From a virus (Duplodnaviria; Caudoviricetes), in IMG/VR virus record IMGVR_UViG_3300025316_001101: 64,000 nt of DNA; one strand, 5' to 3'. This document shows, in pieces, positions 3,350 to 19,432 of this stretch. How positions within the stretch are numbered: position 1 is the first letter of the stretch; each line of letters starts with the position of its first letter. Under the pieces are notes generated by a model, which was not told where the DNA came from, did no database searches, and was given only the letters and a program-made list of their open reading frames with translations. A program made the translations under genes and the position numbers.

Positions 3350-3350
3350 A

Positions 3351-4482: not shown

Positions 4483-4496
4483 ATTCTATCATAGTT

Positions 4497-7184
4497 TTAT
4501 TTGATAATTTCTATCGTTGGTGACGGCCTTTCCATAATTGTCAATCGCACATCGTCTTTCTTTTCTTTAGGAATCACCTTATGTCGATATGCTTTGGGCG
4601 GGCTTTCAAAGGTGTAATTCTTAAATGGTGGCTTTGGCCGTTCCAATCTGACTTTTAATAAATGTCCCTTTCGTGAATCGGATTCCCAATACTGCAATTC
4701 AGATTCGAACCGCTTGTAATCCTCATCCCACATTGTCACCCCTTCTGTCTGCCATTCAGCATCCTCGACCTTGAAAACATAATAGGGATTTCCCGTCTTG
4801 GATTTCTTTTCAACAGGCCGTTCTATAACTCTAACCTCCACCACCGTAATGGCAATATCCTCTAAATCAACCCGGCGACGAAATTCTCCAAAGGTATATC
4901 CCTCATAATCTGGACTCTTTTCCAGCATATGTTCCCAACCAAATCCATAAAATTTATCTTCTGCCTCAATAGGATCTGCACGGAAGATCTTTGCCAATTC
5001 CTCATCAATCTTGCCAGGAGGTTCAAACCCCTCTAAAACAATAGGCTTATCCTCAGCCTGTTTTTCCCGAATGGAGATTACATTCTTCTTGTATTTGCCG
5101 ACATACTTCTTCCACTGTTTGACATCAAATTTATCTAAACAATCCGCCATCCATTCATTTAATGCAATATTGCAACCATCATCATCTAACTCAACACATT
5201 TATCTAAATGGGCAGCCGCCTGTTCTCTTATTTCGGCAGATTGTTCTGCTGTGATAATGCCCTTCAAACCTCTAGCATCGACCGCCAAAAACACAAGATC
5301 ATCAACTATTTCATTACGGCTTTTGACGTTACGCTTATCTCTGTCCACACGCTTCTTCATCTGCTCTTTGTAATATTCGGCAAATTCATAAAGTGTAACA
5401 GCACTCATACCAGTATCTTTGAAAACTCGCAATCCAATCAGCGGCTTGATTACAGCAGCGTCCGTACCAAATCTTGTCAAGAAATCTTCAAAACTGGCAT
5501 ATGGTTGGCCAGCAACGATCCGCTTGGCTACTTCTTCTCCAATTCCTTTGATATTGGCAAAACCAATATAAATTGAATCGCCTACAATAGAAAATTTAAC
5601 CTTAGACTTATTCAAATCCACACGATTGACTGCAATGCCAAACTTTTCGGCTTCCAGTTTATATTCTTTAACCTTTTCTTCATCCTCTTCACAACTCAAA
5701 ATAGCCGTAAAGAATTCCAAAGGATAATGAGCTTTTAACCAAAGAAGACGTGAACTGATATAGGTATAAGCCACCGCATGGCTCATGTTAAATCCATAAT
5801 CTGCAAACGCTTCAATATAGTCCCAAAGCTTAACAACGTCCTCTAATGGCCATTCTAATCGCTTCTGTCCTTCTTCCAAGAATTTATTCTTGTACTTAAT
5901 AAACTTATCAACCTTCTTCTTGCTAATAGCCTTACGTACAAGCTCACAATCCTTTAATGGAATATCACCTACGATATTCAAAATCTTCATAACCTGCTCT
6001 TGATAAACAAGAACGCCAAAGGTCTTGCCAAGTACCGGCTCCAACAACGGATGAATTTCGTAATGTTCCAATCCGTTCTTTCGGTCGCAGTAGTTCGTGG
6101 CCATACCCGAACCTAACGGCCCAGGACGATACAACGCAGTATAGGCCGCAAGATCATCGAAACTATACACGCCACCACGTTTTACCAATTCCCGCATTCC
6201 GGCCGAATCAAATTGGAATATGCATCGCAATTTACCCTGATTGGCTAAAGCCAATGCCTTGGGATCGTTAAGATATGAAATATCTGACCAACTTTCCCGG
6301 CCGGGCAACGCACAGATATTTTCAATACCATGCCGAAGCTTAATTTCTTCCGCAATTGACTTAGTGGTATTATCTGCTCGTTCAAGAATGATTCTAGCCG
6401 CTTGCGCAAGCTGTTCTAAGTTCGTTAGGCCAAGCACGTCATATTTAACCAATCCCACAGGCTGCAAGTCTTGTGCATGTAACCCTTCAGTCCAAGCTGA
6501 TACTGGGTTGCCATCCGAATCTGTGCATAGAGGGACAAGATCGGCAATGGGGATTCTAGAAATAATCAATCCCCCGGCATGCTTGCCACGACTCCTAATA
6601 CGATTCAACATCCGCTTGGCAGCCTTGGCAATATCGGGATGTATTTTACAATACTCTGCAAGATCCTTGTTTAACTCTAATGCCCGTTCCCAAGTCAGCG
6701 TCTTGCCTTCATCGTCTTTCAAACCCAACTTGGTCGTCACATTCAATACTTCATCACGATCTGCACTAAACACCTTAGCCATATCAATCAAAGAACTTTT
6801 GATTCCAAATGTATTATAACTTCCAATGTTACACACATTCTCTGGGCCAAATGTCTTAGGTGCCCACTCATCCTTGAGATACATCCGCACGTCCTTCTTA
6901 AAATCTACGTCAATATCAGGAAATTCGCCGTAAATGTAGACGGGCTGCTGACTCTCATCCCAGTCTTCACAAATACCCAACAGCAATGCGATCAACAAGT
7001 TATTTTCATTCCTGTCAATCTTCACTCCACGGTCATGCAAGTCCAGAAAATAATCGTGCTCATTGAAGTCGTCAACCGCCTTCAATTCCAACTTCATTCG
7101 CTTTTCATGTTCTTCACCATATCCGGCCAATTGTGCTATCGTAGTTTCGCACAATTGGATCAATCGTTCTTTTGAATCCATCAT
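4497..7184 (-). CDS. dnaE: DNA polymerase III alpha, C-terminal gene (catalytic Asp motifs, fingers, HhH, OB; no PHP)
   Basis: FPDIDVDF, GKHAGG, KYDVLGL, FQFDS, ALYRPGP, YQEQVM, YGFNMSHAVAY, GFANIKGIG, OB-like C-terminus. Confidence 0.95.
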   Translation of the reverse strand: MMDSKERLIQLCETTIAQLAGYGEEHEKRMKLELKAVDDFNEHDYFLDLHDRGVKIDRNENNLLIALLLGICEDWDESQQPVYIYGEFPDIDVDFKKDVRMYLKDEWAPKTFGPENVCNIGSYNTFGIKSSLIDMAKVFSADRDEVLNVTTKLGLKDDEGKTLTWERALELNKDLAEYCKIHPDIAKAAKRMLNRIRSRGKHAGGLIISRIPIADLVPLCTDSDGNPVSAWTEGLHAQDLQPVGLVKYDVLGLTNLEQLAQAARIILERADNTTKSIAEEIKLRHGIENICALPGRESWSDISYLNDPKALALANQGKLRCIFQFDSAGMRELVKRGGVYSFDDLAAYTALYRPGPLGSGMATNYCDRKNGLEHYEIHPLLEPVLGKTFGVLVYQEQVMKILNIVGDIPLKDCELVRKAISKKKVDKFIKYKNKFLEEGQKRLEWPLEDVVKLWDYIEAFADYGFNMSHAVAYTYISSRLLWLKAHYPLEFFTAILSCEEDEEKVKEYKLEAEKFGIAVNRVDLNKSKVKFSIVGDSIYIGFANIKGIGEEVAKRIVAGQPYASFEDFLTRFGTDAAVIKPLIGLRVFKDTGMSAVTLYEFAEYYKEQMKKRVDRDKRNVKSRNEIVDDLVFLAVDARGLKGIITAEQSAEIREQAAAHLDKCVELDDDGCNIALNEWMADCLDKFDVKQWKKYVGKYKKNVISIREKQAEDKPIVLEGFEPPGKIDEELAKIFRADPIEAEDKFYGFGWEHMLEKSPDYEGYTFGEFRRRVDLEDIAITVVEVRVIERPVEKKSKTGNPYYVFKVEDAEWQTEGVTMWDEDYKRFESELQYWESDSRKGHLLKVRLERPKPPFKNYTFESPPKAYRHKVIPKEKKDDVRLTIMERPSPTIEIIK

Positions 7185-7672
7185 TCATCCTCTTCGGTAT
7201 CTTCATCCTTCACAACAGCCTTAACCGCAGCCATCTCATCATCCTGCCAATTGCCGTAACGACGATTGATACAAAGGAATTCTTCCATGTCATGCGGCAC
7301 AACACGCTTCTTCACAGCATCTTCACTAGCATCACCCTCTTCATCAGCATCATATTCTACACCAATATGACAAAGTTCGTGATCCACCAAAGCCATCTTT
7401 CCCTTCTGAGAAAGAGCCGTCCAAATAATCTCGGGCACAATAATTGCATAAAATTCTTCGCCCTCTGGATTATCCGATGCTTGAGCGGCATTGAACCCCG
7501 ATACCTTGCGGCATAGGCCCCAAACTTCCTTACCGTTTCTTTTGGTCACTTTATCCGTAAACCAATAATCGACTCGAATCTTATAATCTGTAACTTCCGC
7601 ATGAAACTTGGGAATCAACTCTTCCGCAACTTCTTGTACTGAATCTGCTTTCCAAAACTTAGCTTTTGCCAT
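7181..7672 (-). CDS. phage metallopeptidase (HExxH)
   Basis: ALVDHELCH and HDMEEF motifs; SD AAAGG before MAKAK. Confidence 0.75.
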   Translation of the reverse strand: MAKAKFWKADSVQEVAEELIPKFHAEVTDYKIRVDYWFTDKVTKRNGKEVWGLCRKVSGFNAAQASDNPEGEEFYAIIVPEIIWTALSQKGKMALVDHELCHIGVEYDADEEGDASEDAVKKRVVPHDMEEFLCINRRYGNWQDDEMAAVKAVVKDEDTEEDE

Positions 7673-7717
7673 TGTTATACCTTTCTGTAAATGATTGTTT
7701 CCATACAAGACTATAGC

Positions 7718-7752
7718 AAAAAAGCCCCATCTCCGCAAGGCGGAGATGGGGC
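7718..7752 (-). terminator. hairpin terminator
   Basis: GCCCCATCTCCGC..GCGGAGATGGGGC with a T tract on the minus strand. Confidence 0.8.
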
Positions 7753-7776
7753 CAGGATTATGGCAATGGGCTTAGG

Positions 7777-8283
7777 TCACGTTACTGGTTGAAACCCCAT
7801 TGCCTCTAGCAACTTGGACATGTATTCGGTTACAAACTTGCCGATGCCCAAGCTTTTAGTTTCACGGTTCCCCGCTACATTTAATGTCTGAATGTTTTGA
7901 TCCTTAATCCAGGAAATCACCTCCTCAATAGGAATTGGATTTTTAACATCCACATCAATGATTGGTTTCCCGTATTCCCGCACTGCTTTCAACGTACATG
8001 TTTCCCCTGGAGACCGCCAATCTGAAGCAAATCGTATAGTACCATCAGAGTCTCTAGCGTTAGCCTTAGTCCTTAGTACATATGCTATATGGTCATTGAC
8101 TTTTCCAGCAACCGGTTTGTGTTCTTTCAATCCGTACTCTTGCTCGTATTCCGGCTTAGGTCCATTCTCTGTAATCCACCCCAGCGGCATCCATCCACCG
8201 GTTTCGACACCATACTTCTTGGCTGCAATCAAACCAGCAATGTCCGATCCACTCTGCCCACCACTGACTACACGACTTAACAT
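7777..8283 (-). CDS. putative molybdenum-carrier-like (SLOG fold) protein
   Basis: VVSGGQSGSDIAGL, GGWMPLG, RTKANARDSDGT, TLNVAGNRE. Confidence 0.85.
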   Translation of the reverse strand: MLSRVVSGGQSGSDIAGLIAAKKYGVETGGWMPLGWITENGPKPEYEQEYGLKEHKPVAGKVNDHIAYVLRTKANARDSDGTIRFASDWRSPGETCTLKAVREYGKPIIDVDVKNPIPIEEVISWIKDQNIQTLNVAGNRETKSLGIGKFVTEYMSKLLEAMGFQPVT

Positions 8284-9212
8284 ATCTCTTTCCTCAAAAT
8301 TTCCTCGATGTGATTATACTCAAAAAACGGTATTCGCAGAAGCCTAATCTTATTATCTGCACAAAATTTTGACTTTATCTCATCATGATGTTTGACTTTC
8401 TGTAAATATCCCCTGCCACCAAAACATGCTATCGGCCTATAGTGTTGTTCTCCATCATACTCTATGCATAAATTCCGTTCACTAAGATAGAAGTCAAACG
8501 ATAATTCTAATTTATTTATACAACCTTGGAACTTCTTTTCCGCCTCATACTGAAATCCATTAACTTGCAAAAACTTTTCTATCTTCAACTCGCCTTTAGA
8601 TGCATCGCATTTAGGACAGCCTTGTTCGTGATATAAATGCGCACCTGCCAACTGCATAAACACATAATCGTGTTTCTTACATCTAATCTTTATTTTAACA
8701 CGATTGCCTCTGTAATCTCCATAATACTCATACCGATCATCGTGTAATATTCTACATCTGTCCTCAAACACACTCACTAACATCGGAAGATTTTGCGGTA
8801 AACAACGATACTGACATTTTTTGCAACCGCATCCAGATAAGTGGCTACTAGCCCTTTGTTTGAATATGTCCCCGCATATATTACACTTTATACGAACCGG
8901 TGCGTGTACATTCTTGTACATTCCTACATATTCATATTTATCTCCATGCACCTTCTTGGCTGCTGCCACAAAATTTTCATGCCCTTGAGATTGGTTTTGT
9001 GACAATTTCTTGTATTGACATTTTTTACAACCATTGCCCTTCAAATGATTATGTGGTAAAATTTTCCATTTATGTCCACACTTATTACATTTTACTTTAA
9101 CCTTTACCGTAGATTTCACATATACGATTTCGGAATAATCATATGTATTTCCATGCACCGTCTTAGCTCGCTCTATGAACTTCTGTGTATTTAATCGTTC
9201 CCACTTTGCCAT
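8277..9212 (-). CDS. putative homing endonuclease: three Zn-binding repeats plus Vsr/DUF559-like PD-(D/E)xK domain
   Basis: Repeated (V)HG..Y.Y...Y......V..KC..C..........HL.G.GC.KC; C-terminal SKGE...FDFYL...CIEYDGEQHY...LLRIPF. Confidence 0.8.
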   Translation of the reverse strand: MAKWERLNTQKFIERAKTVHGNTYDYSEIVYVKSTVKVKVKCNKCGHKWKILPHNHLKGNGCKKCQYKKLSQNQSQGHENFVAAAKKVHGDKYEYVGMYKNVHAPVRIKCNICGDIFKQRASSHLSGCGCKKCQYRCLPQNLPMLVSVFEDRCRILHDDRYEYYGDYRGNRVKIKIRCKKHDYVFMQLAGAHLYHEQGCPKCDASKGELKIEKFLQVNGFQYEAEKKFQGCINKLELSFDFYLSERNLCIEYDGEQHYRPIACFGGRGYLQKVKHHDEIKSKFCADNKIRLLRIPFFEYNHIEEILRKEIC

Positions 9213-9271
9213 ACGCCTCCCAATAATTTCTGGTTATCAAACATATGTATGCTTGTAAGCCGGAAATTATT

Positions 9272-9526
9272 TCATCTCCAATAGTGATAATAGTAAGGGC
9301 TGTAATAAGGACTGTAATACGATTGAATAAACGGTGACTGTCGATCTGAAAATGGCGTAGGATAACTAGGAAGAGCAGGATATGGATATGGCAAAGAGCC
9401 TGGAGTCACTCGCACAGCCCGATTCCTCTCCATATCTTGATAAACCGACTCTATCCTCATTGCAGGCGTGGGGTGCAAAGGAGGCGGCGAAGCCCCCAAT
9501 AAGGCACATAAAATAAATGCATACAT
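9272..9526 (-). CDS. small secreted Pro/Tyr-rich protein
   Basis: Hydrophobic N-terminus; YYSPYYSPYYYHYW tail. Confidence 0.55.
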   Translation of the reverse strand: MYAFILCALLGASPPPLHPTPAMRIESVYQDMERNRAVRVTPGSLPYPYPALPSYPTPFSDRQSPFIQSYYSPYYSPYYYHYWR

Positions 9527-9545
9527 ACATATCTCCTAATTTTAT

Positions 9546-10661
9546 TCATGATATCCAGTGTTTGTTTTGCATAGTCCATTTAATAATGCGATCTAAAGTT
9601 TCATCAAACGATATTGGTTGTCTCCAACCAAGACTTCTCAATTTACTTCCATCTAAAGCATAACGCCTATCATAACCTGGACGGGCAGATTCACTGGGTA
9701 TTAATTTATATAAAAGTTCCTTTCCCATAATTTTAGCAACTGCCCGTGCCAATTCCAAATTATTCAATTCGGTATCGCCACAAATATTATAGCGATCTGG
9801 TCGTTTTGCTCCTTGACTATAACGAGCAGGATGCAGGTTGGACGCAATAAATTTAATGGCATCAGCTTTATTTCTAGCATCCAAATAAATTCTAGAGCCA
9901 ATATACCAACCTTGGTTATTTTCAGCATGATTTCCACCGTGACCACTAAGATTAGTCAATGAAGGGCCATCGGTCTTATCGGCATACACAGGCATTTCTT
10001 TACCTGTAGCAACGTATTGAATAATCTTAGGCAAGAATTTTTCTGGATCTTGCCATTCCCCGATTATATTCATGCAATTTGTAATCACCACAGGCAGATC
10101 ATAAGTACGCCAATAAGCAATCGCTAAAGCTTCTTGGGCTGCTTTAGATGCCGCATATGGATTAGATGGGGCAATTGGCGACCATTCAAGATGCCCTAGA
10201 CTAGGAAGCGGTGGTGCTTCTCCATAAACCTCATCTGTACTAATATGAACAAATAGCTTTGGCTTTGCCTTTCTGGCAAACTCCAACATGTTAACCATCA
10301 ATTCATAATTGTTTCTTAAACAATGTGTGGGATCAGTGGTAGATCGCTCTACAGCAGAATCAGAAGCCATGTTAATAATATAATCAATTGGCTTTTCTGT
10401 AAGAACCCCCCGATCATCAAGACTCCTTCCCATGATTTGATTCTCTAACGGCCAATCAATCGGAACCGTCAAATCATGCATATAGATTCTAACCCGCTTT
10501 GAATTTCCATATCTTTTGAAAACCTCATTACATCGACTAACGATTCCTTTGTGACGGAAAGAATCTAAACCAATAATTTCCCAATCTGTGTTTTCTAACC
10601 AGTATTGGAGACAGTGCGACCCAATAAAACCACCCACACCTGTTAAAAGAACTCTTTTCAT
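9546..10661 (-). CDS. rmlB: dTDP-glucose 4,6-dehydratase-like NAD-dependent epimerase/dehydratase
   Basis: GVGGFIG, STDEVYG, PSNPYAASKA, RPGYDRRYALDGSKL. Confidence 0.9.
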   Translation of the reverse strand: MKRVLLTGVGGFIGSHCLQYWLENTDWEIIGLDSFRHKGIVSRCNEVFKRYGNSKRVRIYMHDLTVPIDWPLENQIMGRSLDDRGVLTEKPIDYIINMASDSAVERSTTDPTHCLRNNYELMVNMLEFARKAKPKLFVHISTDEVYGEAPPLPSLGHLEWSPIAPSNPYAASKAAQEALAIAYWRTYDLPVVITNCMNIIGEWQDPEKFLPKIIQYVATGKEMPVYADKTDGPSLTNLSGHGGNHAENNQGWYIGSRIYLDARNKADAIKFIASNLHPARYSQGAKRPDRYNICGDTELNNLELARAVAKIMGKELLYKLIPSESARPGYDRRYALDGSKLRSLGWRQPISFDETLDRIIKWTMQNKHWIS

Positions 10662-10663
10662 TA

Positions 10664-10918
10664 TTACTCCCACAAATGTATACTATATGGTTTTTTAATT
10701 AACGATTCAATTTTGTTAATCAAATCATGAACCGTTACAATTTCATGACAATCTTGTATCAGTAAATTTATTCTAAACTCATGTTGTAACAATAGCACTA
10801 TTTCCATGCCGTCTACAATAGAGCAACATCCAAGGTCATCAACAACTCTAGACTCAGGAACTATATGTTGCTTCCCTAATACCTTTTCAAGAATTGCAAT
10901 TATTTTTTGTTCAATCAA
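10664..10918 (-). CDS. acyl carrier protein-like
   Basis: IVPESRVVDDLGCCSIVDGMEIVLLLQHEFRI...IVTVHDLI aligns by eye with ACP; probable TTG start at 10918. Confidence 0.65.
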   Translation of the reverse strand: MIEQKIIAILEKVLGKQHIVPESRVVDDLGCCSIVDGMEIVLLLQHEFRINLLIQDCHEIVTVHDLINKIESLIKKPYSIHLWE

Positions 10919-11930
10919 TGATCGGCACCTTTCCAAAACCAATGCCCTTTTCTGGCTCCGCTTCTGAAGAATCTGGCGGATTCTCTACCATTGCTCGCAA
11001 AGTCTCTATAGCATCTCCATAAGAATCACCCTGAATACATACCGAAATAAACAACTCCTTTAGATGAGCAATGGACATCCCAGCCGTATCCTTAACCCAA
11101 CAACTTAAATCATACTTGCTGGGATCGGTAGCACCAAAACTAAAGAGATGATCAAAAAATATCTTCCTAGACTTGGCTCTCGGATGTGGCATCATGAATC
11201 GTTTATCAAATCGACTAGGCCGATTAATGATTCTGTCACCAAGTTTTTCTGGATAATTAGTGGTCGCCAAGAAAACCACATTTTCAATTTTCTCTACGCC
11301 GTCCAATATATTCAATACTTCTGACTCGCAATATTTTTCAAGAATTGAGTCCAAATCCTCCATCAACACCACCAACCGAGTTGTTGGTTGAATGACACGA
11401 AAATGACGCATACATTCAACAAACGTAGATGGATGATTATCAAACTTAAAGACAACGCCACCACGCTTCATAACATCCACTACGACCAATTGGATTGTGC
11501 ATGATTTACCAGATCCCGGTGGCCCCCACAGAATGATGCCTCTCTTATAGATCACCCGATTTAATCTGAACAGTTCCTCATTTTCCCAAAAATTCTGAAT
11601 TTCACTAATTACCTTTTCAGAATTTGTTTCAGGGAAACGAATCAAGCCATCTGTCTTGGTCTCTAATTTTTCAAAATAATGTCCCTGAGTAGGAATGTAT
11701 TTTGGTTCATAGACACCTGGAGGCAATTCCTTAACTGTTACGCCCGTAGGGAAAAATCTAACCCCATCACATGTGTTCCACTGGCACATCTTGCCATACT
11801 CTTTTTCTGGCCCTATTCCACAATCGCCCGCAAAAGATGGCGATTCTGATACGTATCCCTGCTTGGGTGGCCGAGTTGGCGTGCCAGTTAGAAGCTTGTT
11901 TAATTTTCTTTGTTCAGAAGCAGATGACAT
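10911..11930 (-). CDS. AAA+ ATPase (single AAA domain)
   Basis: GPPGSGKS Walker A, MEDLD Walker B, ATTNYPEKLGDRIINRPSRFD second region of homology. Confidence 0.9.
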   Translation of the reverse strand: MSSASEQRKLNKLLTGTPTRPPKQGYVSESPSFAGDCGIGPEKEYGKMCQWNTCDGVRFFPTGVTVKELPPGVYEPKYIPTQGHYFEKLETKTDGLIRFPETNSEKVISEIQNFWENEELFRLNRVIYKRGIILWGPPGSGKSCTIQLVVVDVMKRGGVVFKFDNHPSTFVECMRHFRVIQPTTRLVVLMEDLDSILEKYCESEVLNILDGVEKIENVVFLATTNYPEKLGDRIINRPSRFDKRFMMPHPRAKSRKIFFDHLFSFGATDPSKYDLSCWVKDTAGMSIAHLKELFISVCIQGDSYGDAIETLRAMVENPPDSSEAEPEKGIGFGKVPIID

Positions 11931-11992
11931 AAATTACACCCTGAAGTATCTTATGTCATGCAGTATAGCAGAAAAGAATTGTAAATAAAAGG

Positions 11993-12250
11993 CTAATTGG
12001 TCACAGGTTTGTATAACTGAGCACACTTTTCACAAGCATTGACTTCTTTGGCCGTTTCATGCCCAACACCACCATAATCGTCCATTTTATCACTACTGCG
12101 ATTACTTCTAAAATTACCGCCATCTCGACGGTCATATCCCTGATTAGCCTTTCTTCTGGCAGGATATTCTTTGTTTCTAGTCTCAAGGATAACCTTTCGA
12201 CACGCTGTTCCTTTTGGAACGATCTCTCCACATAGTTGGCATTTATACAT
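11993..12250 (-). CDS. hypothetical Zn-binding protein
   Basis: CQLC...CEKC. Confidence 0.6.
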   Translation of the reverse strand: MYKCQLCGEIVPKGTACRKVILETRNKEYPARRKANQGYDRRDGGNFRSNRSSDKMDDYGGVGHETAKEVNACEKCAQLYKPVTN

Positions 12251-12264
12251 GCTTTAATATAGTA

Positions 12265-12576
12265 TTACTCTTGAGGATTCCTTTTTAACCATGCCGCAAT
12301 AACACCATCGGGATCTTCCGGTGCTTTATAATCAAAAATATTATCACAACACATCTTTCGTAATTTATCAAAAAATTTCGGATCAGAAGGATTGGCTGCA
12401 CGTGTTGGAATTACACCCATAATCTGCCGAAACAATTGATACATGTCACCTATTCGAGTGGTGTCTAACATGCCCTGTTGTGCAAGTTTTAATAGCCCAG
12501 ATAATCGTAGCTTTTGAGCAGCACCAGCAGCCTCTAACATATTATGTTCGGCAAGATATTCTTCAAATAATTGCAT
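12265..12576 (-). CDS. hypothetical protein with capsid-targeting-like N-terminus
   Basis: MQLFEEYLAE; preceded by TATATA-N4-ATG. Confidence 0.65.
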   Translation of the reverse strand: MQLFEEYLAEHNMLEAAGAAQKLRLSGLLKLAQQGMLDTTRIGDMYQLFRQIMGVIPTRAANPSDPKFFDKLRKMCCDNIFDYKAPEDPDGVIAAWLKRNPQE

Positions 12577-12599
12577 GTATTATATACGATCAGCGCACG

Positions 12600-12634
12600 A
12601 AAAAACCCACCCGGCCGAAAGGCCGGGTGGGTTT
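12600..12634 (-). terminator. GC-rich hairpin terminator, CCCACCCGGC family
   Basis: ACCCACCCGGCC-GAAA-GGCCGGGTGGGT with T tract. Confidence 0.85.
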
Positions 12635-12658
12635 ATCACAATGCACAAGAAGTGCAAG

Positions 12659-13159
12659 TTACGACTGGCAACGGCAGCGATGAAGTCTACCGTGCTTCTT
12701 TTCTGCGCAACCACAATCGGCTGGCGCACAAGCCTGAGGTACAGGTGTTACCACCACCGCTGCACAAGCCTTGGGTGCATCGCAGCACTTGGGAGCCTCA
12801 CAGCGAACCTTACAACGGCAACGAATCTTCACCTTGCAGCACTTGTCGCATTTAGCAGGCTCGCAAGCCTTGGGTGCAACTGGAGCACATGCCGGAACGC
12901 AGGCCGCTGGGGTACATGCCTTACAGCAAGTAGAGCAACGGCACTCACGGTTGTGCCTTGCCTTCTCGACAATGCACCCAACCTTATTTACTACTGCCTT
13001 CGGCACTGCCACGATTGCATGCAAAACCGGATGCTGCACGCACGGACAGGTTGCCCCAGTGCTAGCCGCACATGGAGCCGGGATGGGTTCGACTGCGAAA
13101 GACATGCTGGCTACACAAACCAACGCAATCGCACACACCGAGATGATCAAACTCTTCAT
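12659..13159 (-). CDS. secreted Cys-rich low-complexity protein
   Basis: Strong AAGGAGG SD; signal peptide MKSLIISVCAIALVCVASMSFA; many CxPAC/CC motifs. Confidence 0.75.
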   Translation of the reverse strand: MKSLIISVCAIALVCVASMSFAVEPIPAPCAASTGATCPCVQHPVLHAIVAVPKAVVNKVGCIVEKARHNRECRCSTCCKACTPAACVPACAPVAPKACEPAKCDKCCKVKIRCRCKVRCEAPKCCDAPKACAAVVVTPVPQACAPADCGCAEKKHGRLHRCRCQS

Positions 13160-13221
13160 AACACTTCCTCCTTTGAAGGGGGTTAAAAAATGGGCCTGCT
13201 CATGCAAGCCTAAACAAACAA

Positions 13222-13275
13222 AAAACGAGTGTTAGGTTGGGGGATTACGAATCTCTCAGCTTCGCACTCGTTTTT
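13222..13275. terminator. long hairpin, likely bidirectional terminator
   Basis: AAAACGAGTG...CACTCGTTTT outer stem with T tracts on both strands. Confidence 0.55.
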
Positions 13276-13279
13276 AATC

Positions 13280-13804
13280 TCAAGCAGTATGTTCAACAAC
13301 CGCTTTACAAAAATCTATTACGTCTTCTCTATTCCAACCGTTCTTGGCAAACTGTACTATCATCGCCACAAATTCAATATTTCCTTTTTCGTAACCTTTA
13401 GAAGAATCAATTCTGTCTACACTTGCTCGATCAGGGGTCTTTGGCAATTGAAACTTTCGACTACCACAACTCATTTGCTTTAATTGCCAACCCGTATATG
13501 GGCATATCCCTTGTTGAGAATCCCATTGTAACTGCAAGTCTTCTAATGTTACCGTGCATTGTTTGTGCCGTCGTCTCATATTTCTCAGGTGCCATCTGAA
13601 CGGTGACAACTCATCAAACCGATTATCGGGTATTAAATTTTCAGGATGATATCGCCTGTCCTTTGGGAGATTATCCAGCGTTCCTTTTCCAGTGCATTCA
13701 AGAGAACAAAATACTCGTCTGTTAAGTTTCTTGTTCCTATTAACCTCCCCTGCATTCCTCTCAAACTTATTTCCACAAATCTCACATTGTAATTCAATTT
13801 TCAT
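13280..13804 (-). CDS. His-Me finger (HNH-like) free-standing endonuclease with N-terminal Zn finger
   Basis: CEIC...FCSLEC; CPYTG; SVDRIDSSKGYEKGNIEFV. Start MKIELQ at 13804 with GGAGG SD. Confidence 0.8.
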   Translation of the reverse strand: MKIELQCEICGNKFERNAGEVNRNKKLNRRVFCSLECTGKGTLDNLPKDRRYHPENLIPDNRFDELSPFRWHLRNMRRRHKQCTVTLEDLQLQWDSQQGICPYTGWQLKQMSCGSRKFQLPKTPDRASVDRIDSSKGYEKGNIEFVAMIVQFAKNGWNREDVIDFCKAVVEHTA

Positions 13805-13806
13805 AA

Positions 13807-13839
13807 ACGCCTCCATACCGTATAGTAGTATGGAGGCGT
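13807..13839 (-). promoter_or_regulatory. hairpin sequestering the endonuclease Shine-Dalgarno
   Basis: ACGCCTCCATAC-N9-GTATGGAGGCGT, a perfect 12-bp stem containing GGAGG. Confidence 0.75.
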
Positions 13840-13852
13840 CCAGAAATTTTAG

Positions 13853-14203
13853 TGGAGGCGGGCGTAATCGAAACGCCGTCCAGAGGTACTCTTGCTCCGA
13901 CCTCTACGTGTGTAGTTTGTTGTATTTATCTCATCGCATTGAACTACAGCTAACAAAAGCTCAAATTGACCAGCGACTTTTTTCTTGTTTTGATTCTTGT
14001 CGCCCGTACCAAAACATACCGACTATTACGGCGAGACTTCGGACTTCATCGGTTGGAATTCCTTGTCTCGGCTGCCCAATCTCTTAGGCCGCAACTGCAA
14101 AAGTGTTTGCAATTAGGTTTTGGTCTGCTTTTAACGTGGCCTGCTGACCAACCACGACACGCCATCTGAGTTCGACTTACCCTGTCGAAACCTTGTCGCC
14201 CCC
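13853..14203 (-). ncRNA. ssrA: tmRNA (one-piece), tag peptide ANTFAVAA*
   Basis: 5' GGGGGCGACAAGGTTTCGAC; acceptor GGGGGCG/CGCCTCC with G3-U wobble and A discriminator; T-arm GGCGT-TTCGATT-ACGCC; tag frame GCA AAC ACT TTT GCA GTT GCG GCC TAA at 14110-14084. CCA is not encoded. Confidence 0.95.
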
Positions 14204-14314
14204 TCAAGTTGTCAAAGAACTTCAACATTGTAGTACAGGCCGTAACCCTTGTAAACCCCAGCCAAGTTAAGATGGGCAATTTACGACCGGATTGCGGCTA
14301 AACACTACTGAGGT

Positions 14315-14343
14315 ATTATACGCTCCACTAACCCAAATATCAA
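14315..14343 (-). promoter_or_regulatory. sigma70-type promoter for the tmRNA transcript
   Basis: TTGATA-N17-TATAAT. Confidence 0.75.
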
Positions 14344-14398
14344 CCCCTTTTCCAGAAGTTGTTTTGGAGAACGCACTTGCGCACACTAAAATAGGATT

Positions 14399-14653
14399 GT
14401 GAAGAAGAAACAACTATTCAAAAAACTAGACGGAAAATGTTATTTTTGCCCTGAAACAGAAGCTCTTGATGCCCATCGAATTCTACCTGGGGCCGAAGGT
14501 GGCAAATACAAAAGGCACAATGTCTTAACGGTTTGCCCCACGCATCATCGTAAATTACACATGGGGAAGATCGAGGTTCTTGGACGACATTATTCCACCG
14601 CTGGGGTGTATGTTTTGCACTACTTAGAGGATGGCGAAGATAAGTGGGGCTAA
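14399..14653 (+). CDS. small HNH endonuclease
   Basis: CYFC...DAHRI.P...GG.Y...N...VCPTHH..LH. Confidence 0.8.
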   Translation: MKKKQLFKKLDGKCYFCPETEALDAHRILPGAEGGKYKRHNVLTVCPTHHRKLHMGKIEVLGRHYSTAGVYVLHYLEDGEDKWG

Positions 14654-14862
14654 TTCATTGAGATGGCACCTTTAGAACATGCCTCTACACATGCACCACA
14701 ATCTGTACAATGATCGGCATTGAACACCACAAGCAATTCTCGTTTCAATGCTCCCGTTGGACAAGCCTCAACACATCCCTTGCAACATTTTCCGCCGCCA
14801 CAAGAACATGAAGTGCATGCCCCATTCTTCCAACAGCATTTATCATAATCGATTGTTATCAT
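14650..14862 (-). CDS. 4Fe-4S dicluster ferredoxin
   Basis: CKGCVEACPTGAL and CTDCGACVEACSKGAI. Confidence 0.85.
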   Translation of the reverse strand: MITIDYDKCCWKNGACTSCSCGGGKCCKGCVEACPTGALKRELLVVFNADHCTDCGACVEACSKGAISMN

Positions 14863-14864
14863 CC

Positions 14865-15743
14865 TTATCCTCTTCCTGGTAAAAGCACATAATCTTTAGC
14901 ATAGCGTCCTTGTGGATTATTTCTGTCTACCACGGGTATCTTTCTGGCTAATTGACCGGTTAAAACAAAAGTACAATCCTCTTCTTTCAAGAAACGATAG
15001 ATTTGTTTCAAAGAAGTCCAATAACCCATTTGTCCTCCACCTCTCGAACAAACTCCAATTAATTCCCCGTTTTCTGCAAACAAACCTCCTCCTGATCTAC
15101 CTCCCCGTGGGGCATTGTTTTGAGTAAGAATCTCGGTCACCCCTCCATTCATCTGTTCATGCACGCACGCTACCAAATAATGTGCGGTATCGCTCTTGTT
15201 ATCACAACCAGTGCTATGATACCAAGTGCCAGAGGTATATTGAAAATCTAATGGTGCAATGGGTGCGCACACTACACCCTTCCAATCCGGCTTAAATCTA
15301 ATTAAACTACAATCATATATCGAAGAACTGTCATCTCCCCACACGTGACACATCACCTCTCCCACGTATCGCTTGCCAGATTCTAATTTATATTGCCCTT
15401 TATAAAATACCTCTACATAAACTTGCTGTGGATTTTTGCGATAATATTCAATACTCCCCCGACCTCTGGAGAACAAATGCCCGCAAGATATAACATATGC
15501 ATAATTGTTCTGACTATCGTAATATACAATTGTGCCTGATCCGCTACGTACATTTGATACAAGCACAGTAGGGATTAACCACTTAGCTACAGACGGCCCT
15601 CGTTCCTCCCATCCTGCACCCGCTGATTGCCTATAACCATAAGGCAATTCTATTACAGGTTTTACTTCTTGAGCAATTGTTAAAGAAGAAAAGGAAAATA
15701 GCAGAGCTATACCAATAATAAGCGATTTTAGAAATGTTTGCAT
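14865..15743 (-). CDS. secreted trypsin-like serine protease
   Basis: Signal peptide; GSGTIV, SCGHLF (His), YDCSLI (Asp), GGRSGGGLF (Ser). Confidence 0.85.
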   Translation of the reverse strand: MQTFLKSLIIGIALLFSFSSLTIAQEVKPVIELPYGYRQSAGAGWEERGPSVAKWLIPTVLVSNVRSGSGTIVYYDSQNNYAYVISCGHLFSRGRGSIEYYRKNPQQVYVEVFYKGQYKLESGKRYVGEVMCHVWGDDSSSIYDCSLIRFKPDWKGVVCAPIAPLDFQYTSGTWYHSTGCDNKSDTAHYLVACVHEQMNGGVTEILTQNNAPRGGRSGGGLFAENGELIGVCSRGGGQMGYWTSLKQIYRFLKEEDCTFVLTGQLARKIPVVDRNNPQGRYAKDYVLLPGRG

Positions 15744-15833
15744 TTATGCCTCTGATCGTAGAGGGATCTTAAATATCTAGGGATTGCGGATACATAAATG
15801 CAGACAGATTCCATAAATACTGTGGAGATTAAT

Positions 15834-16022
15834 ATGATCAAACGTAATATGTCAGATAAAATTATCGGTGGTGTTTGCTCTGGATTGGCAAAAGAAATAG
15901 GCGTTGATTCAACGTGGGTCAGATTGGCTTTTCTTTTTGCTTTTTTATGGGCGGGCGTTGGACCGCTAGTTTATCTTATAATGTGGTTATTAATGCCCCC
16001 TGATACCGAAACGAGGATATAA
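15834..16022 (+). CDS. pspC: PspC-domain membrane protein
   Basis: [21 protein letters not shown]...YLIMWLLMP. Confidence 0.9.
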
Positions 16023-16025
16023 CAT

Positions 16026-17141
16026 ATGAAAAAGTTCCCTAAATTCTATGAATACCTAGACCAGAAAGGAAAGCTGGTAGAGAAGCCGAAAGAAGAGGAT
16101 GTGCCGGATTACCACGGAGCGACTGACGCCTCTCCTCCTAATCCTGTAACTAAGGGCAAAAAATGGGATGCTGAATATGCAGCACCTCTTAAAGATAGCC
16201 AAAAACCTTACAAAGCTCCTGGCAAAGACATGACTGCGCAGCAGAGTATGGGTAAAGATAATGAAGGTGGATTGCTTTCTCAAGGTGATAAACGATTGGT
16301 ATACAATCCAAGTCTGAAAGGCGGTACATCTAAAAACATCAATGGCGGAAAAGAAGTACATGGTTGGGACAAGAAAACCAAAACCGAACAATTCATTGAC
16401 AAGACCAAGAACATGTCTTTTCAAGAATTTACAGCTTACATAAAAAAACTAAATCGTTTAGATGAAGACGTAAGCGACATTCCAATGGTTACTGCCTATG
16501 CTCCTGGAAATTTTCATCCGCATCCAGTAGAAGCCATACAGTATATTGTAGCATTAGCTGCCAAGAATGATCGTATACTAGAGCAACTCATTCATGTCAT
16601 GAAAAAAGAAGGTGTGCTTGATAAGCTTATTAAAACCGTAATGGAACACCCTGAAGCCGCTGACGCACTAACTGGATTGTTAGGCGATGAACAGCATGGT
16701 CCAAGATTAAGCCGTTCTTTAGCTAGATCTATGCACAAGCAACATGCTGATTTCCTTGATAAACAAAAGGGCATGTATGAATCAGTAGCTCCACCATTTG
16801 GCGATGATGATGAAGATGAAAATTCACCAGAAGATGGTGAAGGAGAAGCTGGAGAATTAGATGATCAGCCCGGCGAAGGCGAAGAAGACGGCGGCGACGA
16901 AGGCCAAGAAGGTGATGAAAACCAAGAGGGCCAGCCAGATGATCAAGGTGGCGAAGAAGATCAAGAGGGCCAGCCAGATGATCAAGGTGGCGAAGAAGAC
17001 CAAGAGGGCCAACCAGATGATCAGCAACAACCTCCTCCGCAAGAAAAGCCAAGAAAACTAAAGAAGAAATTTGCACATCATAACATGTTAGATGCTCTAT
17101 CTAACTTTGAACATATGAGAGATGCAATGAGAGCATACTAA
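16026..17141 (+). CDS. hypothetical protein with acidic repeat tract and capsid-targeting-like N-terminus
   Basis: MKKFPKFYEYLD; QEGQPDDQGGEED repeats. Confidence 0.75.
   Translation: MKKFPKFYEYLDQKGKLVEKPKEEDVPDYHGATDASPPNPVTKGKKWDAEYAAPLKDSQKPYKAPGKDMTAQQSMGKDNEGGLLSQGDKRLVYNPSLKGGTSKNINGGKEVHGWDKKTKTEQFIDKTKNMSFQEFTAYIKKLNRLDEDVSDIPMVTAYAPGNFHPHPVEAIQYIVALAAKNDRILEQLIHVMKKEGVLDKLIKTVMEHPEAADALTGLLGDEQHGPRLSRSLARSMHKQHADFLDKQKGMYESVAPPFGDDDEDENSPEDGEGEAGELDDQPGEGEEDGGDEGQEGDENQEGQPDDQGGEEDQEGQPDDQGGEEDQEGQPDDQQQPPPQEKPRKLKKKFAHHNMLDALSNFEHMRDAMRAY
16923..17023 (+). repeat. 39-bp coding tandem repeat, about 2.6 copies
   Basis: CAAGAGGGCCAGCCAGATGATCAAGGTGGCGAAGAAGA(T/C) starting at 16923, 16962 and 17001. 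Confidence 0.9.
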
Positions 17142-17152
17142 TAACGGAGAAC

Positions 17153-17184
17153 AAAAACGCCCGGCCATTGGCCGGGCGTTTTTT
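17153..17184. terminator. bidirectional terminator, CGCCCGGC family
   Basis: AAAAACGCCCGGCC-ATT-GGCCGGGCGTTTTTT between convergent genes. Confidence 0.9.
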
Positions 17185-17186
17185 AT

Positions 17187-17756
17187 TTACTGTGTCTTCA
17201 ATCTGTCATACATGTGTTCGGCATAGCCCACATCGGACAGTTTACGACTACTAAAGTCTCCTGTGTATTTTCTGGGCACAGCATGCAACAAATATCTCTG
17301 GATTAAATCTGGAATAAATAGAGGTTCCGCTTGTCCTTCTGGCATTTCGTGTTCGGCCTGTACAAAATAGCAACGACCATTTTCATCACGAAATAAATCT
17401 ATCTCCCACATATAATCAGTCCCATCTCTAGTGACATATAGAAAATGGCGGTCCTTAATCAAATGTTCGGTGGAAGTATCCCATAAATCCTTAAAATCTC
17501 TTTCTGGGATTTCTGCCTCTACTTCCACCGTTCGATCATTAAGCTTTTGTTTAAGCGTCAACGAGAAATGTTCAACGGCATGATAAACCCCACGGATGCG
17601 CACGCTTAAACTGGTATCTCCGTAAAGGTATGCTTGTTTAATAGGATCTGGTTCAGCCAGCAGTCGTTCCAACTCTGTGATCTGAACCTTTTTATCTTTT
17701 AGATCTTGCGCAAAACTAAGATCTAGAACGAATTTTAACTCATTTTCTGTTGGCAT
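17187..17756 (-). CDS. CYTH-domain (triphosphate tunnel) protein
   Basis: ENELKF, QAYL, VRIR, LTLKQK, EVE, KDRH, WEIDLF, AEHE. Confidence 0.85.
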   Translation of the reverse strand: MPTENELKFVLDLSFAQDLKDKKVQITELERLLAEPDPIKQAYLYGDTSLSVRIRGVYHAVEHFSLTLKQKLNDRTVEVEAEIPERDFKDLWDTSTEHLIKDRHFLYVTRDGTDYMWEIDLFRDENGRCYFVQAEHEMPEGQAEPLFIPDLIQRYLLHAVPRKYTGDFSSRKLSDVGYAEHMYDRLKTQ

Positions 17757-17763
17757 AATGTTC

Positions 17764-19188
17764 TTATTGTTCTTCCCAAGGGGCAATACTGTTATCAACT
17801 ATTTGTGCGGCTGGTTCAAACTCTGGCTCTTTAGGTTTTGGAGGATCATAATTTCCACTAAATCTTAGTCGAATTGATTTACCACCACGGGCAGGACTCA
17901 TAAACCGTGAAAACAACAAATCATGCAGGATTGGATTCACATCAGTAATTCCCAAAAGGTAATTGGTTAGTGCGCCCACTCCTGAACCACGACCAGGACC
18001 AACAGCTTCGGTCCCATCTGTACCGTACTTTTCGGCACAATATCTCCGAGCTTCATCAGTCATCATCTTTTCGATCAAGAAGTAGCTGGCAAATTCTTTA
18101 CTACAAATCAGACCTAGCTCTTCACGGATACGGTCCAAATACAATTGATTTGTGGGCAAACCACGCTTTTTGAATCCTTCCATCACATACTGCCGCAATT
18201 TATCATTAGCACAATCAATCACTGGCAATTTCAAGGAACGATCCAATTGTACGCCTTTTGCTTTTTCACAAATTCGTACTGTATTTCGTTTAGCCTCTTT
18301 GAACAGTTCGTAATCAATGACATCGCTATACTTCTCTTCCCACTTTTTATTGATCTCGTCCTCTGTTTTCATAAAGAGGTTCTGATCCTGCAACTCGAAA
18401 AGCTCTCCTGCTCGGCCCTCTGAAATCTGTTCCTGAATTTCCGCCAAAGTTTTGCCGGTCTGGATCATGAGCATGACCCGTTGCATAAAGCTATCTTCTT
18501 CTTTACAGTAATGGCAATCGTTTGTAAGAACGAGAGGAATGCCAAACTTCTTATGGGCTTCGACAAGAAATGCATTATAGGGCTTTTGTTTATCAAAGTC
18601 CAGCAGCATCATCTCCAAGTAAAAATGCTCGCCAAACATTTCATGGTACTTGCGTACCACGTCCATTGCTTCGTCTTTTTCCTTGGTGTCAAAAGTATAT
18701 CCAATTTCACAGTTGTAGCAACCACTGCAAAAAGTGATTCCTTCCTTATACTTCGTGAGTTGTTCGTAATTTACTCTAGGTTTATAATAAAATCCATGTA
18801 GCCATCCCCAAGAAGTAAGCTGCACCAAATTCTTGTACCCGACCTCATTATGAGCTATAGCAAGAAGGTGGCACGACTTTCGGAAGCGTTTTTTATCATC
18901 TTCGCCCATACCTTTAATGAACTCACCAGTCGATTGACCGATAGGTACATCTGGTTGCTGGGAATTGAGATATAATTCACATCCAAACAATGGAAATAGC
19001 CCATTATCTTCACAAGCTTGAATTTGGCGTGGGATGGCTCCCATCATGCCATGATCAGTTATGCAAAGATATTGCTGATTAGCGGCCTTAGAATACTCTG
19101 CATACTCTTCGACCATAGCATATCCATCAAGGACACTGAAATCAGTATGTCTATGAAGGTGCTCAAACCCCGTAATTTCATGCTGCAT
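17764..19188 (-). CDS. dnaE: DNA polymerase III alpha, N-terminal gene (PHP domain through the GRGS/FxRF region)
   Basis: HLHRHTDFSVLDG, ITDHG, GCELY, TNDCHY, GPGRGSG, LLGITD, LLFSRFMSPAR; ends before PDID. Confidence 0.95.
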   Translation of the reverse strand: MQHEITGFEHLHRHTDFSVLDGYAMVEEYAEYSKAANQQYLCITDHGMMGAIPRQIQACEDNGLFPLFGCELYLNSQQPDVPIGQSTGEFIKGMGEDDKKRFRKSCHLLAIAHNEVGYKNLVQLTSWGWLHGFYYKPRVNYEQLTKYKEGITFCSGCYNCEIGYTFDTKEKDEAMDVVRKYHEMFGEHFYLEMMLLDFDKQKPYNAFLVEAHKKFGIPLVLTNDCHYCKEEDSFMQRVMLMIQTGKTLAEIQEQISEGRAGELFELQDQNLFMKTEDEINKKWEEKYSDVIDYELFKEAKRNTVRICEKAKGVQLDRSLKLPVIDCANDKLRQYVMEGFKKRGLPTNQLYLDRIREELGLICSKEFASYFLIEKMMTDEARRYCAEKYGTDGTEAVGPGRGSGVGALTNYLLGITDVNPILHDLLFSRFMSPARGGKSIRLRFSGNYDPPKPKEPEFEPAAQIVDNSIAPWEEQ

Positions 19189-19197
19189 TATTTCACC

Positions 19198-19422: not shown

Positions 19423-19432
19423 TTTCTTTCTC

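Follow-up and report, generated by a model that had tools for sequence, protein, structure and literature searches.

An intein-less DnaE-type DNA polymerase of a huge phage encoded by two distant genes and cut inside its catalytic core

In a huge uncultured phage, the bacterial-type replicative DNA polymerase is encoded as two separate proteins, with the cut lying inside the catalytic core. The window that we analysed is a 64,000-nucleotide stretch of a genome record (IMG/VR IMGVR_UViG_3300025316_001101) of 259 kb, estimated to be about 50% complete. The catalytic core is not found there on one polypeptide but on two ORFs that are 10.58 kb apart and have separate starts and stops. The breakpoint is precise and conserved, the two proteins overlap in a stretch of homologous sequence, both are under purifying selection and neither contains an intein. 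Given these features, the two genes probably encode two subunits of a single DnaE-type (C-family) replicative polymerase that assembles non-covalently, most likely with one active site built from two chains. To our knowledge, the palm is always on one chain in the C-family replicative polymerases studied so far.

The N-half gene (P0001; 17764..19188, minus strand) encodes 474 aa that open with a PHP domain (aa 10-194), continue into the beginning of the palm (GPGRGS at 397-402, LLFSRFMSPAR at 424-434) and close with a 40-residue tail before the stop. It matched PF02811 (aa 10-194, E 1.2e-36) and positions 2-98 of the PF07733 profile (E 5.6e-22) in Pfam. The C-half gene (P0002; 4497..7184, minus strand) encodes 895 aa, in the order N-extension, catalytic strand, thumb, rest of palm, fingers, HhH and a C-terminal region of ~300 aa; it carries PDIDVDF at 89-95, KYDVLGL at 247 and FADYGFN at 460, and matched PF07733 positions 100-260 at aa 87-252, with fingers and HhH represented by PF17657 (aa 305-441, E 3.1e-39) and PF14579 (aa 516-592, E 2.9e-14). 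Both ORFs are exactly as given in a preliminary description of this DNA, which had placed PHP, GPGRGSG and LLFSRFMSPAR in a gene ending before PDID, and PDIDVDF and KYDVLGL in another about 10.6 kb away; its headline claim holds, in that the DnaE has no intein, is divided through the active-site region and carries a segment twice. PF07733 is cut cleanly between the two ORFs, at profile positions 98 (P0001) and 100 (P0002). When aligned to a reference single-chain DnaE (LR756511.1, 1179 aa), the N-half reaches R434 and the C-half begins at E87, with one residue between them; identity to this enzyme is 52% for the N-half and 55% for the C-half. Each half has its own Shine-Dalgarno sequence and start codon (AAGGTGA and ATG for the N-half, which ends in TAA at 17764-17766; GAGG for the C-half, whose start codon and the stop codon of the metallopeptidase gene upstream overlap in ATGA), and they are therefore independent genes. 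There was no Pfam match at E<=10 in P0002 590-895, where an OB fold and a clamp-binding motif were sought; residues 712-886 are conserved with LR756511.1.

In Pol-beta-like nucleotidyltransferases and in Pol III alpha, a Gly-rich loop and a Ser bind the triphosphate. Judged from the sequence, the cut is between the GS-loop helix and the DxD strand of this nucleotidyltransferase core, such that neither chain alone would have a complete active site. The functional form of the palm entry segment (17887..18219, minus strand; P0001 aa 324-434), which is duplicated in the C-half, contains GPGRGS at bases 17983-18000 (GRGS is aa 399-402), and R400, G401, S402, R428, F429 and R434 are invariant in 89 N-half sequences. 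The catalytic strand PDIDVDF lies in the C-half (6900..6920, minus strand), as does the third catalytic Asp, D249 of KYDVLGL (bases 6438-6440), and all three catalytic Asp residues (D90, D92 and D249) are invariant. The GS loop and the three catalytic carboxylates expected of a Pol-beta-like palm are thus all present, but distributed over two chains. In the PHP domain (18607..19161, minus strand, by Pfam) and beyond it, each of the candidate metal-binding residues (H12, H14, D21, H46, E71, H107, C157, D224, H226) is either invariant or conserved in 90% or more of the same 89 N-halves, D224 and H226 being downstream of the Pfam match. Since the full set of conserved metal-binding residues is kept, the PHP domain of the N-subunit is probably a proofreader.

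The preliminary description had noted that the first ~85 aa of P0002 echo the end of the N-half, and had taken this segment to be degenerate. The echo is real at the profile level, whereas the idea of degeneracy did not stand up. The C-half N-extension (6927..7184, minus strand; P0002 aa 1-86) is a diverged second copy of the palm entry in which NENN (59-62) occupies the position of GRGS. Comparison of 70 C-half N-extensions with the 89 N-halves in hhalign gave a probability of 89-93.5% and an E-value of 2.3e-7, pairing P0002 3-47 with P0001 326-371; with a looser setting P0002 1-85 paired with P0001 324-428, placing NENN beneath GRGS. PF07733 positions 3-48 also weakly match P0002 8-51 (E 0.0088). 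Pairwise BLASTP of the two overlap segments gave no match, the homology being visible only with profiles. Rather than decaying, the N-extension is conserved family-wide with invariant residues of its own (E33, Y45 and N59) and a dN/dS of ~0.08, and modelled alone it is predicted to form helices in a confident fold (pLDDT 86-93). The overlap is, moreover, two-sided and not one-sided as first reported, in that the N-half tail (17767..17886, minus strand; P0001 aa 435-474) carries GGKSIRLRF (435-443; GGKxMKLRF in the family) ahead of a variable acidic end (PWEE). The family motif seems to be the catalytic strand copied in degenerate form, with Arg/Lys in place of the Asp residues. Conservation in the N-half is 0.72 for 435-444 versus 0.19 for 445-474, and pN for the tail is 0.065; tail residues 435-444 and N-extension residues 26-86 are conserved to the same degree as the catalytic domains.

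The split, first seen in this one genome, is shared across a very large clade of huge phages. The preliminary description had proposed asking whether the breakpoint is conserved in related phages, and we found the same breakpoint in independent huge-phage records with the halves 1.7 to ~20 kb apart (~8 kb in G004, a complete genome of 572 kb; ~20 kb in G005; ~1.7 kb in L004). At E<=1e-10 we counted 1,924 homologues of N-half size; the 120 top-scoring ones are all 441-647 aa long with PHP and PF07733, and the N-extension stands at the start of 103 of the 118 C-half representatives (50% identity level); many hundreds of metagenomic relatives share the two-gene architecture. A megablast search with the C-half gene against phage records gave no match. 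In both halves synonymous sites are saturated (pS 0.69-0.98) and pN is 0.06-0.19, indicative of strong purifying selection on each. A single origin of the split without reversal was rejected in an AU test (p 0.003, for groups named after viewing the tree, 256 columns and an unrooted tree). The fission may be ancient in the clade and, at least once, may have been undone by fusion of the halves into a single chain or have occurred again.

It could be argued that the two genes are a product of misassembly, or that they are decaying remnants of a gene whose role another polymerase has taken over, as the record is a half-complete metagenomic assembly with a PolA-like gene elsewhere in it. We consider this scarcely credible given that the same architecture is found in hundreds of relatives, that selection is strong on both halves and that gene order beside each half, junctions included, was reproduced in independent assemblies (L019 beside the C-half, P0003 contigs beside the N-half). 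A second or full-length dnaE, or any other PF07733 match, was not found in the 259-kb record at its ~50% completeness, and PolB (PF00136) was absent from G000, G004 (complete) and G005. G000 and its relatives also have a small PolA-like gene, and the split DnaE is therefore not the sole polymerase gene. The preliminary description had named a full-length dnaE elsewhere, a misassembly and a half lacking purifying selection as results that would overturn it; none of the three was borne out by the data.

A further scenario, which we regard as very improbable, is that the halves become covalently joined, whether through RNA trans-splicing or through an atypically split intein, with a 40-aa N-part and an 86-aa C-part, that escaped recognition. 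The extra pieces do sum to 126 aa, about the size of a mini-intein, and genuine split inteins exist elsewhere in the same gene of relatives; L019, a near-identical relative, has a split intein plus a free-standing endonuclease gene between G357 and S358 of its C-half. However, intein families had no match to P0001, P0002 or their ends, even at E<=10, as had been claimed earlier. HINT motifs were not found at the palm break in a search for which the L019 motifs (CLAAGT.../...VVHN/S), at their different site, served as the positive control: the tail starts with GGK, not Cys or Ser, and the N-extension ends in YGEF followed by Pro, without His-Asn and without Cys/Ser/Thr at +1. These motifs, together with the homology of the N-extension to the DnaE palm rather than to an intein, ruled out the tail and extension as an intein. 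FADYGFN at P0002 460, where the cyanobacterial split intein would sit (FAEY/CFN, a site different from the palm break), is uninterrupted, again in keeping with the preliminary description. At the RNA level, a search of Rfam at E<=0.1 over 3000-21000 returned a tmRNA and two sub-threshold matches only, with no intron near either junction, and ~18 genes and the tmRNA gene separate the halves.

In this spacer (7185..17763; 10,580 bases) we found neither an intein nor an intron, nor any obvious single mobile element. Its ORFs include a metallopeptidase, cpYpsA SLOG, Zn-finger, epimerase, AAA ATPase, endonuclease VII/HNH-like, ferredoxin, trypsin-like and PspC proteins and a conserved 371-aa protein, and its core (the 371-aa protein, PspC, a 178-aa endonuclease-like protein, AAA and cpYpsA) is syntenic between the halves in G004. 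Two endonuclease-like ORFs (endonuclease VII/HNH-like at 13280-13816, PHROG E 3e-13; HNH_5 at 14399-14653, a weak match) stand amid ~16 other genes, away from the junction. Simple insertion of a mobile element into dnaE was not supported, since the overlap is duplicated and since spacer genes (the 371-aa protein and AAA) precede the intact gene in single-chain relatives. The 371-aa protein had no Pfam, PHROG or Atlas match; a sliding clamp was suggested by its size alone and found no support.

The preliminary description had also suggested modelling the pair. A complex model of the N-half with C-half residues 1-520 scored 0.83 versus 0.00 for the best of 3 controls; in a benchmark, 58 of 80 solved complexes and 2 of 110 mismatched pairs scored that high, a calibration that applies only roughly here because custom alignments were used for the complex. 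Three runs shared at least 92% of contacts, with partner pLDDT of at least 83. In the model, N-half 395-398 contacts C-half 94-96, setting the GRGS loop against the DxD strand, and N-half 404, 417, 422 and 424 touch C-half 466-476, with contacts as in single-chain DnaE; the interface includes N-half 427-449 and C-half 32-66 and 81-96. The score may echo the structures already solved for single-chain DnaE (E. coli, T. aquaticus, M. tuberculosis) and so reflect likeness, not binding. Each half looks incomplete when modelled alone: pLDDT is 44-56 in the N-half tail, which is disordered, and 61-63 across C-half residues 81-100, leaving the catalytic strand uncertain. The C-half model superposed on DnaE and PolC structures with Z-scores of 13-22 (~21 over ~400 residues for DnaE), most superpositions aligning residues 85-520 only.

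The earlier account left two alternatives, an active site assembled in trans or a duplication yielding a free PHP exonuclease and a rewired polymerase. We favor trans-assembly because GRGS and R428/F429/R434 of the N-half are invariant across the 89 sequences, because the complex model sets the GRGS loop on the DxD strand and because inteins are found between GRG and S in G004 and in the single-chain relatives P0285 and P0331, a sign of an essential site. That the duplicates have instead been subfunctionalised and work apart, the C-half as a self-sufficient polymerase with NENN in place of GRGS and the N-half as a free PHP exonuclease or pyrophosphatase, strikes us as unlikely, even though the PHP domain has all its conserved metal-binding residues and the N-extension is a conserved, confidently folded homologue of the palm entry. 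Two superpositions even span all of C-half 1-520 on E. coli alpha 285-812 (rmsd 9 A), the N-extension falling roughly on 285-388 (rmsd 9 A), where it might fill the palm-entry site in cis. Yet NENN lacks the triphosphate-binding Gly-rich loop and Ser, the catalytic strand of the C-half is poorly defined in its lone model, and a free nuclease would have no reason to keep an invariant GRGS and RF..R or a conserved GGKxMKLRF tail; inteins also persist between GRG and S in the G004 N-half.

For trans-assembly, our working model is as follows. The N-subunit would supply the PHP domain and those elements of the Pol-beta-like palm that bind the dNTP triphosphate (the GRGS loop and the FSRF..R helix), and the C-subunit would supply D90, D92 and D249, the thumb, the fingers and HhH, such that catalysis would be composite. 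Each chain would retain a diverged but conserved copy of its partner's junction element (the GGKxMKLRF tail and the NENN N-extension), and these left-overs of partial duplication may form a putative clasp holding the two chains physically together. An obligate two-subunit replicase that arose by partial duplication is the best reading of our data. For the full scenario, namely an obligate heterodimer with its active site in trans, a duplicated-palm clasp and an ancient fission with reversal or repetition, we see about even prospects.

There is precedent for dividing a phage replication enzyme. In a literature search with subscription journals mostly outside it, three cases bearing on this architecture were found. 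The nearest precedent comes from group 2.2 T4-like jumbo phages, which have a split 'minimal' Pol III alpha (Iyer, Anantharaman, Krishnan, Burroughs and Aravind 2021, Viruses 13:63, PMC7824862). As that account describes it, the enzyme is likewise intein-less, encoded by two distant genes and divided into an N-terminal NTP-binding and a C-terminal Mg2+/template-binding unit, which its authors predicted to reconstitute one enzyme. By the same account it consists of core nucleotidyltransferase and template-binding domains only and accompanies a family B replicase, whereas the enzyme here is full-sized, with intact PHP metal-binding residues, thumb, fingers, HhH and a long C-terminus, in phages without PolB (G000, G004, G005). 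Comparing the families by description, a conserved duplicated overlap is found here and is not part of what is described there. Cyanobacterial split DnaE, with its naturally split DnaE intein, and 'fractured' phage dnaE genes (Dassa et al. 2009, PMC2677866), an arrangement known from phage metagenomes as well, resemble the present case in that pieces are encoded at separate places, but their breaks carry HINT motifs with Cys1 and His-Asn-Cys/Ser, features that the palm break lacks, and the pieces are trans-spliced into one chain; the L019 fracture is of their type. In T4-related phages (Edgell, Gibb and Belfort 2010, PMC2988022), the gp43A/gp43B PolB of Aeromonas phages 25 and 44RR and the split NrdA of Aeh1 are also replication enzymes made as two polypeptides, which come together with no splicing step; 43A co-purifies with 43B and the pair has polymerase activity, and split NrdA is fully active. 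These belong to unrelated families (PolB and RNR) in few phages, no duplicated overlap was reported, and the halves are adjacent, with a homing endonuclease gene or a short untranslated spacer between them. Domain order and catalytic motifs of our pair are those of single-chain DnaE, both bacterial (E. coli 2HNH and 5FKU; T. aquaticus 3E0D and 4IQJ; M. tuberculosis 5LEW and 7PU7) and phage (LR756511.1, Streptomyces phages), which differ in being one polypeptide without the extra tail and N-extension.

If our interpretation is correct, a Pol-beta-like catalytic core can be assembled from two proteins, and the pair would provide a ready-made system for dissecting the contributions of the halves (PHP and dNTP binding versus catalysis and DNA binding). 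It would also document gene fission by partial duplication in which the overlap was recruited as an interface. The intein-mediated fractures of the same gene in near-identical relatives offer a useful natural comparison. Annotation of huge phages is affected as well, as the halves are now called separately, often as 'hypothetical' or truncated DnaE.

The window comes from a 259-kb IMG/VR virus record with an estimated completeness of ~50%, and its source is therefore a huge phage. Its dnaE is carried as two genes, both on the minus strand and each with a separate Shine-Dalgarno sequence and start codon. The N-half gene (17764-19188; P0001, 474 aa) encodes a PHP domain (PF02811, E 1.2e-36) and profile positions 2-98 of PF07733; the C-half gene (4497-7184; P0002, 895 aa) takes up the same profile at residue 87 (positions 100-260) and continues into fingers (PF17657) and HhH (PF14579) domains. 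All of the motifs quoted in the preliminary description were located in these genes, GPGRGS at residue 397 and LLFSRFMSPAR at 424 of the N-half, and PDIDVDF at 89, KYDVLGL at 247 and FADYGFN at 460 of the C-half. The nearest entry in the phage collection, LR756511.1 (595 kb, uncultured), has one DnaE of 1179 aa, with which P0001 aligns at 52% identity up to R434 and P0002 at 55% identity from E87. The cut is exact, since a single residue of the intact protein separates the two alignments. It lies after the helix ...SRF.S..R and before the strand PDIDVDF, and in the Pol-beta-like nucleotidyltransferase core it separates the GS-loop/helix element from the DxD strand, a fold assignment taken from Pol III alpha structures and Iyer et al. 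2021 (PMC7824862).

The split is not an artefact, it is not decay and it is not resolved by splicing. Our reasoning for this is that: (i) the 259-kb record (~50% complete) contains no other PF07733 match of which the halves could be the decaying residue, and no PolB; (ii) the surroundings of both halves recur in independent assemblies, which speaks against misassembly, as a separately assembled contig (L019) has the order AAA, epimerase, Zn-finger, cpYpsA, metallopeptidase and then the C-half start, and contigs with an 80%-identical N-half share downstream genes for proteins of 188 aa and 367 aa (opposite strand), a PspC protein and a trypsin-like protein; (iii) both halves are under purifying selection, with pN of 0.06-0.19 against a saturated pS of 0.69-0.98 in comparisons with these same relatives, a dN/dS of ~0.04-0.05 for the C-half and ~0.08 for its N-extension (residues 1-86), and a pN of 0.065 for the N-half tail (residues 435-474); and (iv) intein families gave no match to P0001, P0002 or their ends, even at E<=10, and the palm break lacks a Cys/Ser first residue, a His-Asn pair and a +1 nucleophile, so that the break is intein-less as originally described. 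The tail begins GGK, and the N-extension ends ...YGEF with Pro as the next residue. An Rfam search of 3000-21000 revealed no intron, only a tmRNA.

The C-half had been described as opening with a degenerate duplicate of the end of the N-half. This held at the profile level, and the description was one-sided in that it missed a probable second copy in the N-half tail. Pairwise BLASTP between the two junction pieces gave no match. A weak match (E 0.0088) links PF07733 positions 3-48 to P0002 8-51, and when the N-extension and N-half alignments were compared with hhalign, P0002 3-47 paired with P0001 326-371, the palm entry (probability 89-93.5%, E 2.3e-7). At a lower alignment threshold the match grew to 1-85 and 324-428, placing NENN-LLxxLLG beneath GRGS-xxGSLxxYxLG. 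The N-extension is not decayed sequence; all 70 C-halves compared have E33, Y45 and N59, conservation of residues 26-86 (0.61) is near that of palm and thumb (0.66), and the segment is modelled as four helices (pLDDT 86-93). On the other side of the break, GGK(S/Q)(M/I)(K/R)LRF directly follows ...SPAR in nearly all N-halves (conservation 0.72). In P0001 the I-R-L-R-F of this tail parallels D-I-D-V-D-F, with Arg/Lys where Asp sits, an alternating pattern suggesting that GGKxMKLRF is a degenerate duplicate of the catalytic strand. Thus ~100 residues around the junction are present in both genes, each of which has one functional and one remodelled copy; a two-copy junction of this kind would be the expected signature of partial duplication and then complementary loss.

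Many N-half tails (C-termini of P0009-P0120) have an acidic E(E/D)CPF(D) end after GGKxMKLRF, reminiscent of the SSB C-terminal tip, and the P0001 clade has PPWEE-like acidic repeats in its place (17767-17850 for P0001). Such an acidic end may serve to dock a further protein of the replisome. A sub-family of C-halves (P0346, P0361, P0381, P0385 and P0370) has an N-extension enlarged by an insert of ~110 aa, which separates the ...YLLGxS..DP element from NE(F/P)PDIDVDF.

The split dnaE is shared across the family. With P0001 as query, a search restricted by length gave 1,924 matching proteins at E<=1e-10; the best 120 of them range from 57 to 80% in identity and from 441 to 647 aa in length, lie on contigs of up to 633 kb and without exception have PHP and PF07733. 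The best 120 P0002 matches are mostly 47-57% identical and 820-960 aa long, the longer ones having inteins; most cover 99% of the query and therefore include the N-extension, which also opens 103 of the 118 palm-covering sequences within the top 150 representatives (50% identity level). A break at profile positions 98|100 is common to the split IMG/VR relatives, so the breakpoint is kept in related phages although the spacer varies from ~1.7 kb (locus L004) through ~8 kb (G004, whose 572-kb genome is complete and has terminal repeats) to ~20 kb (G005). Another relative, G003, has a single-chain dnaE gene.

In the window the spacer is 10.58 kb long and holds ~18 ORFs. These include a cpYpsA SLOG protein (7777-8283, minus), an NAD-dependent epimerase/dehydratase (9546-10673, minus), a small 4Fe-4S ferredoxin (14650-14862, minus) and a PspC-domain protein (15798-16022, plus). 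A tmRNA gene (13852-14203, minus; Rfam RF00023, 140.9 bits, E 1e-55; ARAGORN tag peptide ANTFAVAA) is flanked by an endonuclease VII/HNH-like ORF (13280-13816, minus; PHROG 3322, E 3e-13), which has a homologue between the dnaE halves of G004, and by a weak HNH_5 ORF (14399-14653, plus). A 371-aa protein (16026-17141, plus) is encoded in the spacer of the window, G004, G005 and L004, and its gene precedes dnaE in single-chain relatives; the protein had no match in Pfam, PHROG or Atlas, and its Atlas model is of low quality (pLDDT 0.42).

In the single-chain loci L001 and L007 the order is a 535-aa gene, the 371-aa gene (opposite strand), AAA, dnaE and a 193-aa gene. In the window and G004 the place of dnaE is taken by the C-half, with the homologue of the 193-aa gene next to it, and the N-half lies upstream of the 371-aa/AAA block. 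Simple insertion into dnaE does not match this order; the arrangement resembles the outcome of a partial second copy having been placed upstream, or of that process in reverse. In an unrooted palm/thumb tree (256 columns), the single-chain clade of LR756511.1 is nested among split sequences (support 99/93 with its split sister, 95/96 for the enclosing clade), and a post hoc AU test on these columns rejects all split forms as one group (p 0.003). With the tree unrooted and the test post hoc, this points to re-fusion or to repeated fission. A small PolA-like (family A polymerase-domain) protein of 408-456 aa accompanies the split DnaE in the window's own record (G000:C1:31588-32217, outside the window), G004 (C1:252280-252861) and G005 (C1:199315-200088).

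Single-chain DnaE uses R400, G401, S402, R428, F429 and R434 (P0001 numbering) for the incoming dNTP. All six are invariant on the N-half, and the carboxylates D90, D92 and D249 are invariant on the C-half. P0001 and P0002 probably form a replicase of two subunits that together make up one active site, and the duplicated junction pieces would act as a clasp between the chains. The other scenario, in which the C-half needs no partner because NENN (residues 59-62) replaces GRGS and the N-half acts separately as a PHP nuclease, is improbable because GRGS and RF..R are invariant on the N-half. Inteins exactly within GRG|S, in the G004 N-half and the single-chain P0285 and P0331, fit an essential site; the G004 N-half (L008:10001-12592) reaches 863 aa through this cis-intein (...AARG|CLGGNS ... 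FLVHN|SGGGSL).

Structure prediction of the N-half with C-half residues 1-520, from custom-built alignments, agrees with the assembly in trans proposed earlier. The complex scored 0.83 and the best of 3 controls 0.00; the score mark was met by 58 of 80 solved complexes and 2 of 110 mismatched pairs, counts that are only rough here given the custom alignments. Three runs agreed in at least 92% of contacts, with partner pLDDT of at least 83. In the model N-half 395-398 contacts C-half 94-96, N-half 404/417/422/424 contacts the GFNxSHAxAY helix (466-476), and the confident interface includes the tail (427-449) and the N-extension (32-66, 81-96). Modelled alone, the N-half has a disordered tail (pLDDT 44-56) and the C-half an uncertain catalytic strand (pLDDT 61-63 for residues 81-100). 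The score may reflect model memory of single-chain DnaE structures, and the predicted chains can be arranged like the intact enzyme, a layout short of showing binding.

There is precedent for such a division. T4-like jumbo phages have a split 'minimal' Pol III alpha (PMC7824862), the closest published case found, with conceptually the same division point and no intein in either system; unlike the window's enzyme, it is described there as being without PHP and other domains and as occurring beside PolB. Intein-less gp43A/B and split NrdA of T4-related phages indicate that halves can reassemble and function (PMC2988022). Split-intein and 'fractured' dnaE genes (PMC2677866) differ in mechanism from an intein-free break. 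In L019:7666-11761 (ENA contig k141_357953), corresponding approximately to window 4497-7184, a split intein (CLAAGT... / ...VVHN|S) breaks the C-half at G357|S358, with a 299-336-aa DUF7487/TnsA-like ORF between the pieces, a classic 'fractured gene'; the window's C-half is uninterrupted there. Identity between the two is 85% upstream and 98% downstream of this site, which suggests recombination there. With a near-identical relative fractured by a split intein elsewhere in the gene, the intein-free palm break stands out. No published full-size split DnaE with a duplicated overlap was found within our limited literature coverage.
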